The position numbers and the translations under genes were made by a program. A stretch of 63,977 nucleotides of DNA, filler included, from an uncultured Acidimicrobiia bacterium (lineage in GTDB: Bacteria > Actinomycetota > Acidimicrobiia > Spongiisociales > JAOTWH01), in assembly GCA_964347285.1 (NCBI GenBank). It is 7 parts of 7 records of this genome, joined end to end, with 100 filler letters (N's around TTAATTAATTAA, not from the genome) between each part and the next. Parts side by side here need not be neighbours in the genome. Positions count along the whole stretch, not along the records: positions 31,362 to 40,899 come from CAYFYE010000092.1; 6 more parts are not named here. The stretch is one strand, 5' to 3'. Below, piece by piece: positions 37,081 through 41,543 of this stretch. The notes beneath the pieces were generated by a model. The model did no database searches. It was not told the DNA's origin and saw only the letters and a list, made by a program, of their open reading frames with translations. Numbering within the stretch: position 1 is the first letter of the stretch; every line of letters begins with the position of its first letter.

Positions 37081-38037
37081 TTGAGCGGCGACATACTCCG
37101 ACTGGCGGGCCGCTGGTCGGCGGAAGGGGAGCCGTGCGTCCTGGCCACGGTGGTGTGGCGGCGCGGGCCGTCCTCGGGCAAGCCGGGGGAGCGGGCGCTC
37201 ATAACCGCCGCCGGCGAAGTCCGGGGATGGTTGGGCGGGGCCTGTGCCGAACCGACCGTGATCCGGGAAGCCCTGGCCGCCCTCACCGACGGCCGGTCGC
37301 GGCTCCTCCAGCTCGGTCCTCTCGAGGAGTTCGGCGGTCGGAGCGGAGAAGGGGTGGTCTCGGTCCCGATGGCCTGCGAGAGTGAGGGCGCGATGGAGGT
37401 GTATTTGGAGCCGCTGGTGCCCTCTCCCCAGCTGGTCGTTATCGGACGGTCCCCGGCCGCCGAGGCGCTGGCGCGGATGGGGGAGGTGCTGGGGTGGCGG
37501 TCGACCCTCGTCGACGATGAAGGCGGCGATCACCCCGACGTCCAAATGGTCCGCACCGAGCTCGATCTCGAGCCGCTCGGGCTGAGCGAGCGCGATTTCG
37601 TGGTGGCAGCCACCCAGGGCCACTACGACGAGCCGGCCCTCGACGCCGCTCTGGCCACCGATGCCGGCTACATCGGCCTGATCGCCTCGCGCAAGCGAGC
37701 CGACACCGTCCTGGAGTATTTGCGGGCCAAGGGTGCCACCGACGAGGCGCTGGCCCGGATCCACGCCCCGGCCGGACTCGACCTGGGGGGCCTGCCCCAC
37801 ACCGAGATCGCGGTGGCGGTGCTGGCCGAGTTGGTGGCCCTCAAGGCGGGCGGCGGTCTGGCTACCGGCATCAGGGTCGAGCGTCCCCGCGAGGCGCTCG
37901 ATCCGGTATGTGGCATGACCGTGGACGTGGCCGCCGCCCACTTCCTCACAGAGCATGCTGGAGAGACCTATTACTTCTGTGCAGCCGGCTGCCAAAAGGC
38001 ATTCGAGGCGGACCCGGCCGCCTTCCTGAGCGGATGA
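37081..38037 (+). CDS. XdhC/CoxF-family maturation protein with C-terminal YHS domain
   Basis: GWLGGACAE, MACESEG, ATQGHYD, YIGLIASR, APAGLDLG; C-terminal DPVCGM...YYFCAAGC. Confidence 0.88.
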   Translation: MSGDILRLAGRWSAEGEPCVLATVVWRRGPSSGKPGERALITAAGEVRGWLGGACAEPTVIREALAALTDGRSRLLQLGPLEEFGGRSGEGVVSVPMACESEGAMEVYLEPLVPSPQLVVIGRSPAAEALARMGEVLGWRSTLVDDEGGDHPDVQMVRTELDLEPLGLSERDFVVAATQGHYDEPALDAALATDAGYIGLIASRKRADTVLEYLRAKGATDEALARIHAPAGLDLGGLPHTEIAVAVLAELVALKAGGGLATGIRVERPREALDPVCGMTVDVAAAHFLTEHAGETYYFCAAGCQKAFEADPAAFLSG

Positions 38038-38053
38038 CCCGGAGAGGAGCCCG

Positions 38054-38626
38054 ATGAAGTTCAGCCAAGAGTTCGAGGTGAAGCGGCCGGTGGACGAGGT
38101 GTGGGAGCTGTTCCAGGACGTCCCCGCCGTGGCCCAGTGCCTCCCCGGCGCCGAGCTCACCGAAGACAAAGGAGAGGGTGCCTACGCCGGCCTGCTCCAG
38201 GTCAAGCTGGGCCCGATGACCTCCAAGTTCGAGGGCGAGGCCACGGTGGCCGCCGACCACGGGGCCCGCAGCGCCCACATCGAGGGCAAGGGGGTCGATC
38301 GGGCCGGCGGCAGCCGCGGTCAGCTCACGATGGACTATGCCCTGGCGCCCGCCGACGGCGGGACCCGGGTGACCGTCGACGCCGACTTCACGTTGTCGGG
38401 CGCCATCGCCCAGTTCGGCCGCTCCGGGCTGGTGGAGGAGATGTCGCGGAGGCTGATCGGGGAGTTCGTGGAGTGCCTGGAGGCCAAGCTCTCGGCCGAG
38501 ACAGCCGAGGAAGCCGCCGCGATCGAGGCTCCCGAGGTGAAGGGGCTGTCGTTGTTCTTCGCCAGCCTGTTCGCCTGGATCGGCCGCTTCTTCAAGCGGC
38601 TGTTCGGCGGGAGGGATTCGGACTAG
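38054..38626 (+). CDS. coxG: CoxG/SRPBCC membrane-anchored accessory protein
   Basis: AQCLPGA, VKLGP, AQFGRSGL; C-terminal hydrophobic anchor. Confidence 0.88.
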   Translation: MKFSQEFEVKRPVDEVWELFQDVPAVAQCLPGAELTEDKGEGAYAGLLQVKLGPMTSKFEGEATVAADHGARSAHIEGKGVDRAGGSRGQLTMDYALAPADGGTRVTVDADFTLSGAIAQFGRSGLVEEMSRRLIGEFVECLEAKLSAETAEEAAAIEAPEVKGLSLFFASLFAWIGRFFKRLFGGRDSD

Positions 38627-38714
38627 CCCCGATGCCCCCTCCGCAACTGCCTGCCGGGCAGGCCGGAGCGGGATTCGTGGCCCCATCCCGGGGCTCGGCG
38701 AGGAGCGAGCGCCG

Positions 38715-39194
38715 CTACACGAACATCTGAACGTCGGCGTCGGCGGCGAAATCCAGAAAGGCCGCCGCGCCGGCGATGTCGCAGCCGTCGATGAGGTCCC
38801 CCTCGGTCACCCCCATGACCCCCATCGTGGTGGCGCAGGCGAACAGGCGCACGTCGAGGCCCTTCACCATCTCGATGAACTCCGGAATGTTGGGCAGATT
38901 GGACTCGTCGAGCCACCTCTTCATCATTTGGGTGGCCACCTGGGTCATGCCGGGGAGGGCGCCGACCAGACTGGGTACCGCCACCGGCATGGCCGGATTG
39001 CCCAGCGGGGCCACCTTGAGCTTGCGGTGCTTGTCCCGGTGCAGGATGTCGAGGCCGTAGAACGTGAAGTAGATCCCGACCTCCCACCCCAGGCTGGCGG
39101 CGGTCACCGCCAGGATCAGTGGTGGGTAGGCCTGATCGAGAGTCCCCTTCGAGGCGACCAATGCCAGCCGCTTGGAGTCTCCGTTGCCGTTCAT
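38715..39194 (-). CDS. DsrE/DsrF/DrsH-like (DsrE2-type) sulfur relay protein
   Basis: SKGTLDQAYPPLILA, YFTFYGL, LFACATTM; ATGA overlap with tusA. Confidence 0.88.
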   Translation of the reverse strand: MNGNGDSKRLALVASKGTLDQAYPPLILAVTAASLGWEVGIYFTFYGLDILHRDKHRKLKVAPLGNPAMPVAVPSLVGALPGMTQVATQMMKRWLDESNLPNIPEFIEMVKGLDVRLFACATTMGVMGVTEGDLIDGCDIAGAAAFLDFAADADVQMFV

Positions 39195-39445
39195 GAGCCG
39201 CCCTCCTTGCGGAGCAGGAATCGCTGGGTGTCGCCCCGGTCCTCGATCAACACCAGCGGATTTCCGGTCTGGCGGGCCAGGGCCGGGAAGTCCTCGAGGG
39301 AGCCGGGATCGGTGCAGATCACCTCGAGCACCTCGCCCGGTTGGAGCTTCTTGAGCGCCATCGACGTCTGATACACGGGCAGCGGGCACAGGAGTCCCGT
39401 GCAGTCCAGGGTCTGGCTCACCTCGACGTTCGTGCCGTGGGTCAT
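39191..39445 (-). CDS. tusA: TusA-family sulfur carrier
   Basis: LDCTGLLCPLP, GEVLEVICTDPGS; ATGA overlap with the cysteine synthase gene. Confidence 0.9.
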   Translation of the reverse strand: MTHGTNVEVSQTLDCTGLLCPLPVYQTSMALKKLQPGEVLEVICTDPGSLEDFPALARQTGNPLVLIEDRGDTQRFLLRKEGGS

Positions 39446-40449
39446 TGGCTGTCTCCTTTCTCACCAAAATGGGGAACGCCGTCGGCGCCGAGCAGCTCGG
39501 CGTAGTAGCTGGTGTATTTGAGGCCGCCGTCTGCGGAGATGCCGACCGCGACTCCTTCGCCGGCGATCTGGTGGGCGGCCCAGACGACGGCTCCGGTGGA
39601 AGGCCCGACGATCAGCGCCTCTTCCCGGAACAGCCGGAGGGTCGTCTCGTAGGCAGGGCCGTCGTCGACGCGAATGACCTCGTCGACCACGTCCCAATCC
39701 ATGATCTCCGGTGTCTTCGCTTCCTCGAGGTTCTTGAGACCGGGGAGGCGATGGCCCGGCTGGGGCTCGATGGCAATGATCCGAATGGTCGGGTCCTTCT
39801 CCTTCAGGAATCTGCCCACGCCGGTGACGGTTCCGGTCGTTCCCAGCCCGGCCAGGAAGATGCGGACCCGGCCCTCGGTCTGTTCCCAGATCTCGGGCCC
39901 GGTCGTCTCATAGTGGGCGCGGACGTTGTCGTGGTTGGCGTACTGATTGGGCATCACGTAGCGCTCGCCCCCGGCGCTGGCGGCGAGCGAGCGGGCCAGG
40001 GCTATGGCGCCGTCGGCGGGATAGTCGGTCGGGCACAAGTCGTCGGGGGTCTCCCAAACCTCGGCCCCCAGCATGCGCAACAGGATCTTCTTCTCCTCGG
40101 GGACTCCGTCGGGGATGGTGACCGTCAGCTCCTTGTCGGCCAGGGCCGCCAACGCCGCCAGGGCGATGCCGGTGTTGCCCGACGACGGCTCCACCATTGC
40201 CTTGCCGTCGAGCTCCCCGCGTTCGATGAGCCCGGCCAGCAGGTAACTGGCGGTCCGGTCCTTGATCGATCCGAACGGGCTGAACCATTCCAGCTTGAGG
40301 TAGAGCTCCATCGGACGAGGAGGGGCGACCCGGTTGACCCGCACCAGCGGAGTGGGATCGGCGACACTGGGCAAGAGCTCGTGCACGGCCCCATAGCGGC
40401 GCCGCCGCCGGTCGGCATCGAGTGCCGGTTCGGTCTGGGTAGTGGTCAT
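39442..40449 (-). CDS. PLP-dependent cysteine synthase family protein
   Basis: KLEWFSPFGSIKDR, EPSSGNTG, NQYAN, HYETTGPEIWEQ, GLGTTGT; ATG at 40449 with AGGAGG. Confidence 0.92.
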   Translation of the reverse strand: MTTTQTEPALDADRRRRRYGAVHELLPSVADPTPLVRVNRVAPPRPMELYLKLEWFSPFGSIKDRTASYLLAGLIERGELDGKAMVEPSSGNTGIALAALAALADKELTVTIPDGVPEEKKILLRMLGAEVWETPDDLCPTDYPADGAIALARSLAASAGGERYVMPNQYANHDNVRAHYETTGPEIWEQTEGRVRIFLAGLGTTGTVTGVGRFLKEKDPTIRIIAIEPQPGHRLPGLKNLEEAKTPEIMDWDVVDEVIRVDDGPAYETTLRLFREEALIVGPSTGAVVWAAHQIAGEGVAVGISADGGLKYTSYYAELLGADGVPHFGEKGDSQ

Positions 40450-40460
40450 GTCGCCTCCTG

Positions 40461-40498
40461 AAACGCGAAAAACCCGCTGCGGTGGTACCGAGCGGGTT
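40461..40498 (-). terminator. Attenuator intrinsic terminator in the cysteine synthase leader
   Basis: Minus strand AACCCGCTCGGT-ACC-ACCG(C)AGCGGGTT followed by TTTCGCGTTT. Confidence 0.85.
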
Positions 40499-40525
40499 GC
40501 CTCGTAGGGTCTTGGGGCCGGTCGT

Positions 40526-40597
40526 CTAGGGGCGCGCCCGCTCGTGCTGTGCACAACAACAGCAGTTGCAGCAGCACGGGCAGAACAGCGCGTTCAT
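40526..40597 (-). CDS. Polycysteine leader peptide MNALFCPCCCNCCCCAQHERARP
   Basis: ATG at 40597 to TAG at 40526; 8 Cys in 10 consecutive codons; no SD, TAATCT 8 nt upstream; contains CGAGCGGG complementary to the terminator 5' arm. Confidence 0.88.
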   Translation of the reverse strand: MNALFCPCCCNCCCCAQHERARP

Positions 40598-40899
40598 GGG
40601 ACCACAGATTATCCACACCCGGGAAAAAAGCAACGGGGTTTCTGTCGGGCGACCGCTGTTCGGGCCGTCTGCCGGGAGGCGCGGTCGCCGGCGGCCGGGA
40701 CGTGCGCTGGCCGTGTCAGATCAGACCGGCATGGCAGTCGCCTCGCGGCCGGGCCGGCCGCTTCGAGCGCTGGGTCCACCCGCCGAGCCGGAGACCCGCG
40801 CATTTCCCGCCGCGAGGGATCCTGCTCGGGAGGCCGTTCCTCCGGCTCCGGTTCCTAGTCCCGGCCCGCTTCGACCAGCTTGGCGGCGAGACCGACGGG

Positions 40900-40999
40900 N
40901 NNNNNNNNNNNNNNNNNNNNNNNNNNNNNNNNNNNNNNNNNNNTTAATTAATTAANNNNNNNNNNNNNNNNNNNNNNNNNNNNNNNNNNNNNNNNNNNN
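40900..40999. other. Artificial contig linker
   Basis: N-TTAATTAATTAA-N. Confidence 0.98.
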
Positions 41000-41298
41000 C
41001 CCAGCCGGCCCCGATGGCGATCGAGAAAGTCCCAGTACAGGGTGGTGAAGGGACACGCGTCGTCGCCGACCCTCCGGCCGGGATCGAAGCGGCAGTCCCG
41101 GAAGCCGGCTTGTCGGAGAGCGGCAGCAAACTTGCGCATCGAGGCCAGGACGAAGTGGAGGCGCTGGCGGTGGAAGGGCCGGGTGCGCAGCGCCGCCCTG
41201 CTCTCGATCATGAGGATCGTGTCGCGGTCCGGGTCGGCGCTCGCCAGCGCGCCGATGCGAGTGTTGAGCTGGTCACCGAAGACCCAGATCGTTGGCAC
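41000..41298 (-). pseudogene. FeS cryptochrome/photolyase (PhrB/CryB-like) with large internal deletion
   Basis: N-terminal WVFGDQL...[16 protein letters not shown] joined directly to C-terminal DCRFDP...[16 protein letters not shown]. Confidence 0.8.
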
Positions 41299-41543
41299 GG
41301 GTCAGGCCCAGTCCGGCCGGCGGAGCCCGAAGTCGGTGGGGGGAGCGGGGTGAATTCGAGGGGTGGGCCCATTTGTGCACGGTCCGGGGCACGGCGCCAT
41401 GAAAGCCGAACCGGGTGAGTCCAGGCAACAGCTTCCTCGTCGACGAGCCCTCGGCTGGCCCTTGCCTTCAGTGATCGGCTCGTCGTTGTACGCGGTGCGC
41501 CGTGGGTCCTCGGCGCCGGCTCGGTTGTCGGTACCCGCCGATC

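Follow-up and report, generated by a model that had tools for sequence, protein, structure and literature searches.

The stretch of DNA analysed here (the window; 63,977 nt, filler included) comes from an uncultured Acidimicrobiia bacterium represented by a metagenome-assembled genome (MAG; GCA_964347285.1) of 2.63 Mb and 90.5% completeness, and is a concatenation of contigs, as indicated by a run of N and the linker TTAATTAATTAA at window positions 40896–41000. One 9.5-kb contig carries, on the minus strand, an operon in which a polycysteine leader and a terminator are followed by genes for a CysM-like cysteine synthase dependent on pyridoxal 5′-phosphate (PLP), a TusA-family sulfur carrier and a DsrE2B-like protein. 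The contig ends, and the N linker begins, 450 nt 5′ of the synthase start codon, where the promoter-distal context of the operon is cut off. The features are as follows:

40526..40597, minus strand: polycysteine leader open reading frame (ORF), 23 codons plus stop, with 8 Cys, 7 of them within 10 residues; translation MNALFCPCCCNCCCCAQHERARP
40534..40591, minus strand: hairpin over the Cys codons (putative attenuator segment 1:2) in the minimum-free-energy fold of 40600–40450, its role proposed by analogy with leader-peptide attenuators
40466..40504, minus strand: intrinsic-terminator hairpin followed by U5, 17 nt before the ribosome-binding site (−22.7 kcal/mol, z −3.9)
39442..40449, minus strand: CysM-like PLP-dependent cysteine synthase of the ‘WETPDDLCP’ clade, 335 amino acids (aa) (PF00291 PALP, 214 bits, E 3.8e-63)
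39191..39445, minus strand: TusA-family sulfur carrier, 84 aa, with Cys20 in LLCPLPVY (PF01206, 80.8 bits against a cut-off of 28.6, E 6.4e-23)
38715..39194, minus strand: DsrE2B-like protein, 159 aa, with Cys120 in LFAC (PF13686 DrsE_2, 151 bits, E 2.7e-44)

A preliminary description of this locus had reported three genes coupled by ATGA overlaps, and the ORF coordinates bear this out (stop/start overlaps at 39445–39442 between synthase and TusA and at 39194–39191 between TusA and the DsrE-like protein); the cysteines that it listed for the TusA CPxP and DsrE FAC motifs are likewise both present, in LLCPLP (Cys20) and LFAC (Cys120). It had also proposed a survey of the gene neighbourhood of DDLCP-type synthases, naming lack of conservation of the three-gene linkage as an outcome that would refute the persulfide-fed route. 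Scanning one genome per species gave 80 loci, mostly from Acidimicrobiia MAGs, with a synthase 60–72% identical to that of the window, and the trio was kept, in the order synthase-TusA-DsrE2, in 64 of them by tblastn (63 loci, plus L008 added by hand, where the TusA start overlaps the synthase stop). Four loci had TusA only, one of these at a contig end, and 12 had neither partner as a free gene. Crude gene calling and clustering revealed no further neighbour conserved over the 80 loci, the next commonest being a histidine kinase at 15. In one variant locus (L069:78-8428) TusA stands before the synthase, the gene order being IscS-like desulfurase, CysK, CysE, AAA ATPase, TusA, synthase, DsrE-like protein (34% identity), Rrf2 regulator and Cys/Met PLP enzyme.

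Upstream of the synthase the 5′ arm of the terminator could pair instead with CGAGCGGG, just 3′ of the Cys codons, giving a candidate antiterminator (CGAGCGGG:CCCGCUCG, z −0.8), and by analogy with described systems the control region has the anatomy of a leader-peptide attenuator. No Rfam match was obtained in 38000–41500, whilst a scan with promoter and terminator consensus sequences found no promoter and missed the terminator, its stem being bulged. Using a criterion of at least four Cys in eight residues within the 300 nt upstream of the synthase, a short ORF (sORF) with a Cys cluster was detected at 59 of the 72 assessable loci, ending 72–156 nt before the synthase start, as compared to 0/72 on the reverse complement, 0/63 at a distance of 1.5 kb further upstream and 1/360 in shuffled sequences; the leader was not seen at the fusion-type loci described below (0/21). 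The Cys attenuator placed ahead of the genes by the preliminary description is thus real, with a 23-codon leader ORF, a terminator hairpin with U5 and a possible alternative pairing, and the control by Cys starvation that was read from it is supported, since the leader is conserved across related loci. Mycobacteria possess polycysteine leaders, i.e. short ORFs with a C-terminal run of Cys codons ahead of cysteine and sulfur genes including cysK1-cysE (Canestrari et al., bioRxiv 10.1101/834739), and the present locus resembles these sORF attenuators in its clustered Cys codons upstream of genes of this kind. It differs in its genes, as the available text of Canestrari et al. does not cover synthase-tusA-dsrE2 and contains no mention of TusA, DsrE or ‘cysteine synthase’, and a clear intrinsic terminator 3′ of the leader sets it apart from the leaderless mycobacterial sORF attenuators.

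Judged by its sequence, the synthase is a separate subfamily and no equivalog of CysK or CysM, since its NCBIfam scores all lie under the cut-offs (cysKM 252 against 344, cysM 242 against 394, cysK 222 against 351). Its best solved relatives are the Thermus O-acetylserine sulfhydrylase (OASS; 1ve1) and enterobacterial CysM, with Mycobacterium tuberculosis CysM (3dwg/3dki, 138 bits) further off, and an AlphaFold model (predicted local distance difference test score, pLDDT, 88.8) gave top Foldseek matches that were all OASS, CysK or CysM (TM 0.74–0.87). K63, S90-G91-N92-T93, G203-T204-x-G206 and C139 were invariant in 53 aligned synthases, and the motifs align with those of 1ve1 and CysM; we take them to be the PLP-binding lysine (S-x-K-D-R), the substrate loop (S-G-N-T-G) and the glycine-rich phosphate loop. 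Also invariant in this alignment was LGAEVWETPDD-x-CP, where x is Leu in more than 90% of sequences, and Cys139, which lies in ETPDDLCPTDYP (residues 133–144), was kept in all 80 synthases. The ‘extra Cys-containing loop’ of the preliminary description stands only in part: approximately five residues (WETPD) are inserted relative to the Thermus OASS, CysM and the cystathionine β-synthase (CBS)-like paralogue encoded by the same genome, but the cysteine itself is not extra, being aligned with a Cys of that paralogue and of M. tuberculosis Rv1077. The assimilatory role that had been suggested is supported, because all the β-replacement motifs are kept and the gene is the only CysK/CysM-like one in the genome other than a CBS-type core.

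Within TusA, Cys20 was conserved in 67/67 orthologues and C20-P21-L22-P23 was invariant in 45 aligned sequences, whilst Cys44 occurred in 21/67. The protein scored under the NCBIfam equivalog cut-offs for TusA (44 against 78) and YedF (53 against 79), and E. coli TusA is among its solved relatives, as is YeeD, a distant match (E about 1e-4). Of 64 orthologues of the DsrE2-like protein, 63 keep Cys120 and 34 keep Cys138; the NCBIfam DsrE2 model gave 166 bits against a cut-off of 210, and the best solved relative was 2QS7, with whose FAC motif that of the present protein is aligned. 2QS7 has been named a DsrE2B (PMC4175335, PMC11094781). DsrE2 is defined in PMC4175335 by linkage to Dsr or Hdr genes, and the cassette contains no Dsr or Hdr gene.

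A second gene arrangement was found among the 12 loci without free TusA and DsrE2. At six of these the gene following the synthase encodes a protein of ~800 aa consisting of a sulfite reductase, a linker and a C-terminal TusA domain; examples are L007:5961-8366, L044:6018-8495 and 41 metagenome loci among L123–L181 (~770–800 aa). The linker is conserved, with an invariant G-E-C-x-A-G-V-F (Cys586), and the TusA domain has an invariant C-P-L-N. We considered that a DsrE domain might be hidden in the middle of the fusion and rejected this, as neither tblastn nor Pfam gave a DsrE match and the linker is a conserved helical region. The fusion is named just ‘TusA family protein’ at NCBI and ‘sulfite reductase (ferredoxin)’ at JGI. 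Its architecture is represented by 312 clusters at 90% identity, with PF01206 in all 120 among the matches listed, and named clusters come from Planctomycetota, Verrucomicrobiota, Acidobacteriota, Myxococcota and Poribacteria.

When metagenomes were scanned with an alignment of the fusion protein, 59 loci were obtained, 41 with the TusA domain, 29 of which had at least 1000 nt of upstream sequence; at 23 of these 29 assessable loci a synthase 58–68% identical lay upstream on the same strand. The fusion-linked synthases keep WxTPDDLCP wherever the locus includes this region, which L137 lacks. Conversely, none of seven TusA-less relatives of the reductase was accompanied by a synthase of the WxTPDDLCP clade, whilst four, two of them near-identical, had a different PALP enzyme downstream (34–35% identity). 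The fusion clusters also hold PAPS reductase and siroheme genes and are therefore sulfate-assimilation clusters. A phylum-wide search with the fusion protein around G007 yielded just ordinary sulfite reductases, with no synthase or TusA match at any of 26 other loci. The synthase is thus tied to TusA in two separate settings, the cassette and the sulfite reductase fusion, since the same clade stands in the trio and beside the fusion and is missing beside TusA-less reductases, which suggests, as far as gene arrangements allow, that the clade always works with a TusA carrier and not alone. A limited literature search found no paper describing either the synthase-tusA-dsrE2 operon or the reductase-TusA fusion.

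In a FastTree phylogeny of 115 rows, rooted on other PALP enzymes, the synthase clade was monophyletic (support 100), the fusion-linked rows forming a basal grade within which the rows with TusA and DsrE2 were nested (support 99); the polarity of this tree is tentative because long branches meet at the root. The cassette TusA was 39–45% identical to local sHdr-linked TusA proteins versus 28–38% to the fused TusA domains and, short as these sequences are, its greater similarity to the former suggests that a further TusA was taken on as the reductase disappeared. The sHdr-linked proteins are encoded at L192–L195 and L197 (e.g. L192:2838-7666), from the same order as the host genome, where a paralogous TusA (39–45% identity) and DsrE2 (about 52%), a third DsrE and HdrC/HdrB/HdrA-like genes lie behind an ArsR regulator; this is an sHdr-type sulfur-oxidation cluster and the likely source of the TusA/DsrE2 pair of the cassette.

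Searches of the host genome for other sulfur genes were negative for NIR_SIR, PAPS_reduct, YeeE, CysE and Prok-JAB. Rhodaneses are present; next to a rhodanese match on contig C175 there is an E1 of the ThiF family, and the single ThiS-family gene is paired with MoaE. Among the 80 genomes NIR_SIR was found in 11, and 62 of the 64 cassette genomes were without it (exceptions G011 and G013). In a class sample of 201 genomes NIR_SIR occurred in 103, i.e. in 3/56 of the host order versus 100/144 elsewhere. CysE was rare throughout the class (18/201, 12 above cut-off), and the five CysE-positive genomes of the host order were all without cassette-type DsrE2. We had at first treated all DsrE2 matches with E ≤ 1e-44 as cassette orthologues, which was rejected as the 49–56% identity class proved to be sHdr-like clusters or stand-alone genes; cassette-type DsrE2 here means matches of at least 64% identity only. 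Such proteins occurred in 17 sampled genomes in addition to the host, all of the same order, one with NIR_SIR and none of the 18 with CysE. Two genomes are flagged as unpublished: G020 (locus L020) contributes one row to 64/80, 62/64, 59/72, the 42/50 given below, alignments A1 and A2 and the tree, and G267 is one of the 201 genomes; removal of both shifts each count by at most one.

Taken together, we give about an even chance to a route, induced by Cys starvation, in which the DsrE2B-like protein loads TusA and the synthase takes its sulfur from the TusA persulfide; we infer every chemical step, which way sulfur passes between DsrE2 and TusA, the acceptor and the source of sulfur. A shortage of Cys-tRNA would stall ribosomes on the polycysteine leader, and the terminator before the synthase would then not be formed. 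The DsrE2B-like protein would load sulfane sulfur, for example derived from thiosulfate or polysulfide or taken from a low-molecular-weight persulfide, onto Cys20 of TusA, and the resulting TusA-Cys-SSH would attack the PLP-bound aminoacrylate, which probably arises from O-phosphoserine, the acceptor favoured by the lack of a CysE match. Cysteine would thereby be joined to TusA in a mixed disulfide (TusA-S-S-cysteine), and a cellular reductant would then free it. The chemistry has precedent, since CysK and CysM accept glutathione persulfide to give a glutathione-cysteine disulfide and assimilatory sulfite reductases release S0 (PMC13188885), whilst YeeD, a member of the TusA family, handles thiosulfate in assimilation (PMC11073785).

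Several observations weigh against this route. Cys139 aligns with the Cys of the CBS-like paralogue (LCPSDVP) and of Rv1077 (VCPTAVP); being common to CBS-like enzymes it need not be catalytic, and we have downgraded it as a clade-specific catalytic residue. It lies, moreover, in the least confident internal part of the synthase model (residues 131–150, pLDDT ~70). Cys15 of TusA, the candidate resolving cysteine, was present in just 27/67 orthologues and is rejected as a universal one. Six sulfur compounds were tried on the sole DsrE2B assayed biochemically, and it reacted with none (PMC4175335). The absence of sulfite reductase is a lineage trait and not an independent correlate of the cassette, since it follows phylogeny (3/56 in the host order), and absences from genomes rest on MAGs. 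Canonical CysK was also found in five fusion-type genomes (four above cut-off), where the clade synthase is consequently an extra enzyme and not the sole route; the CysE matches, below cut-off in three of five fusion-type genomes, are uninformative. Lastly, JAMM proteins occur both upstream of some fusion-linked synthases and in most cassette genomes, which brings a thiocarboxylate carrier into consideration.

In that scheme a CysM-type synthase would use a ThiS/CysO/MetO thiocarboxylate, with TusA, loaded by DsrE2 or the fused reductase, feeding an E1-activated carrier and a JAMM protease freeing cysteine, as in the CysO-CysM-Mec-MoeZ system of M. tuberculosis. Among the 20 fusion-type loci with enough upstream sequence, JAMM stood directly upstream of the synthase in seven, ThiF in eight and a ThiS-NIL protein with a ThrC-like one in five, L066 having the same set; the ThiF of these loci lacks a rhodanese domain and would hence need a persulfide donor. 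A Prok-JAB (JAMM) protein was also detected in 42/50 cassette genomes, and the host genome itself has the E1 beside a rhodanese match on C175. Nonetheless, no JAMM was found in the host genome, where the only ThiS-family gene sits with MoaE, and in 16 JAMM regions from cassette genomes a synthase never occurred, a ThiS-like gene occurred once and ThiF twice, with neighbours that solved-structure searches identified in one region each as pyruvate dehydrogenase E1 and a cation antiporter. The ThrC-like/ThiS-NIL/ThiF/JAMM set, where present, matches the MetM/MetO/MoeZ/Mec homocysteine system (PMC13759103, Table 2) and so may serve methionine rather than the synthase, although it has a likeness to the M. 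tuberculosis CysO system as well; it was absent nearby at 13 of the 20 fusion-type loci and at all 64 cassette loci. A thiocarboxylate relay is thus not supported for the host genome, and we hold it to be quite improbable overall. Unlikely too, if a little less so, is a simpler arrangement in which TusA and DsrE2 only process inorganic or low-molecular-weight sulfur (thiosulfate, polysulfide or a thiol persulfide) and release sulfide or a small persulfide beside an ordinary sulfhydrylase, with no transfer from protein to enzyme. YeeD splits thiosulfate to sulfide via Cys-bound intermediates (PMC11073785), E. coli-type CysM, among the closest solved relatives, uses thiosulfate, rhodaneses are encoded in the genome, and gene linkage alone cannot separate sulfide release from direct transfer; on the other hand, no YeeE transporter was found in the host genome, and release of sulfide leaves unexplained both why TusA is accompanied in the two settings by a dedicated synthase clade and not by just any CysK and why a different PALP enzyme accompanies the TusA-less reductases.

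TusA and DsrE2 might instead act after the synthase, stripping the sulfo group or sulfane sulfur from S-sulfocysteine or cysteine persulfide, or resolving a mixed disulfide. CysM-type enzymes turn thiosulfate into S-sulfocysteine, whose reduction in E. coli needs thiol proteins (PMC3528435, PMC11073785), thiosulfonate groups are carried by DsrE3A and TusA (PMC4175335), and the mixed disulfide produced from persulfide donors needs a resolving step (PMC13188885). Such a role is, however, less economical for the fusion, where TusA is joined to a producer of reduced sulfur upstream of cysteine synthesis, and the cassette has no linked sulfite-handling gene, so that its prospects appear slim. We find it barely credible that the operon does not serve cysteine synthesis at all and that the PLP enzyme is a desulfhydrase, or makes another β-substituted alanine, and feeds TusA and DsrE2 for cofactor or tRNA thiolation. 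E. coli TusA does serve molybdenum cofactor synthesis and tRNA thiolation (PMC11094781), and the operon is adjoined at its 3′ side, on the opposite strand, by coxG, xdhC with a YHS domain and form-I coxL (Pfam/NCBIfam), CO-dehydrogenase requiring the molybdenum cofactor. Yet this CO-dehydrogenase neighbourhood was not kept at other loci (gene clustering over the 80), induction by cysteine shortage is the opposite of what a cysteine-consuming route would need, and members of the clade from other phyla are encoded in clusters for sulfate assimilation, alongside PAPS reductase.

The locus would represent carrier-dependent cysteine synthesis in a new form, as comparison with described systems illustrates. 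It shares with the M. tuberculosis CysM-CysO-Mec-MoeZ system an actinobacterial host, a genome without CysE and a CysM-like PLP enzyme with a small carrier encoded beside it. The proposed carrier here is TusA, with a cysteine persulfide, and there a ubiquitin-like thiocarboxylate; searches of the host genome gave neither JAMM nor CysO, the cassette lacks a ThiS/MoaD-type carrier, and a DsrE2B-like protein takes the place of an E1. E. coli YeeE/YeeD (TsuA/TsuB) with CysM similarly places a TusA-family protein in assimilation upstream of a CysM-type enzyme (PMC11073785), but TusA in the present case is linked to the synthase and DsrE2 rather than to a transporter, and no YeeE was found. The rhd-tusA-dsrE2 and sHdr relays of sulfur oxidisers likewise have an adjacent TusA/DsrE pair with conserved active-site cysteines; in contrast to these, the destination here would be a biosynthetic PLP enzyme under cysteine control, with no linked dissimilatory genes. 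The sequence of persulfide donor plus aminoacrylate, mixed disulfide and cysteine that we propose is that of PMC13188885, which worked with glutathione persulfide and enzymes from E. coli, Ruegeria and Sulfolobus and in its available text mentions neither TusA, DsrE nor the fusions. The Streptomyces MetM/MetO/MoeZ/Mec system (PMC13759103) is resembled by the ThrC-like protein, ThiS-type carrier, ThiF and JAMM upstream of the clade synthase at 7/20 fusion-type loci; unlike it, the fusion-locus carrier is joined to a NIL domain, and the set is absent from the window as well as from all 64 cassette loci. Loci with this thiocarboxylate module are L158:28-2893, L126, L137, L140, L141, L142, L156, L163 and L066, and a C-terminal GG would become exposed in their ThiS-NIL carrier only after cleavage.

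In textbook sulfur assimilation the final step combines free sulfide with O-acetylserine. We propose, tentatively and at rather less than even probability, that TusA, holding the reduced sulfur of assimilation as a bound persulfide, is the assimilatory counterpart of DsrC, such that in Planctomycetota, Verrucomicrobiota, Acidobacteriota, Myxococcota and others the fusion reductase would hand its product to the WxTPDDLCP synthase without release of sulfide, whilst in those Acidimicrobiia from which sulfate reduction was lost the synthase would have been retained and a second TusA acquired, together with a DsrE2B loader, to feed it from environmental sulfane sulfur. If true, this would revive the old idea of a carrier-bound pathway and give DsrE2B its first biochemical role; even short of that, the locus could assign a function to DsrE2B-type proteins, which so far have none. 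It would also explain how cysteine is made by abundant Acidimicrobiia of soil and sea that yielded no match for sulfite reductase, PAPS reductase or CysE. A 2026 study argued for sulfane sulfur as the real intermediate of assimilation and sought a protein carrier (DsrC), of which, by its available text, none was found (PMC13188885). TusA is a concrete and widespread candidate for such a carrier, tied to one synthase clade in two gene arrangements.

Other genes for related sulfur carriers were observed alongside. The host genome encodes two single-chain TusA-DsrE fusions of 225 and 231 aa, on contigs C29 (L082:1408-2085) and C90 (L083:294-989, minus strand). At L182–L191 (e.g. L182:1556-3639) a paralogous DsrE2-like gene (33–43% identity), common in the class, is found in a conserved cluster with a Pyr_redox_2 flavoprotein and a DsrC-like protein, so that DsrE2B-type proteins have a small sulfur carrier as partner here too. 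Within the window, the XdhC-family maturation factor adjoining coxL (37081–38037) bears its YHS (metal-binding) domain at the C-terminus.

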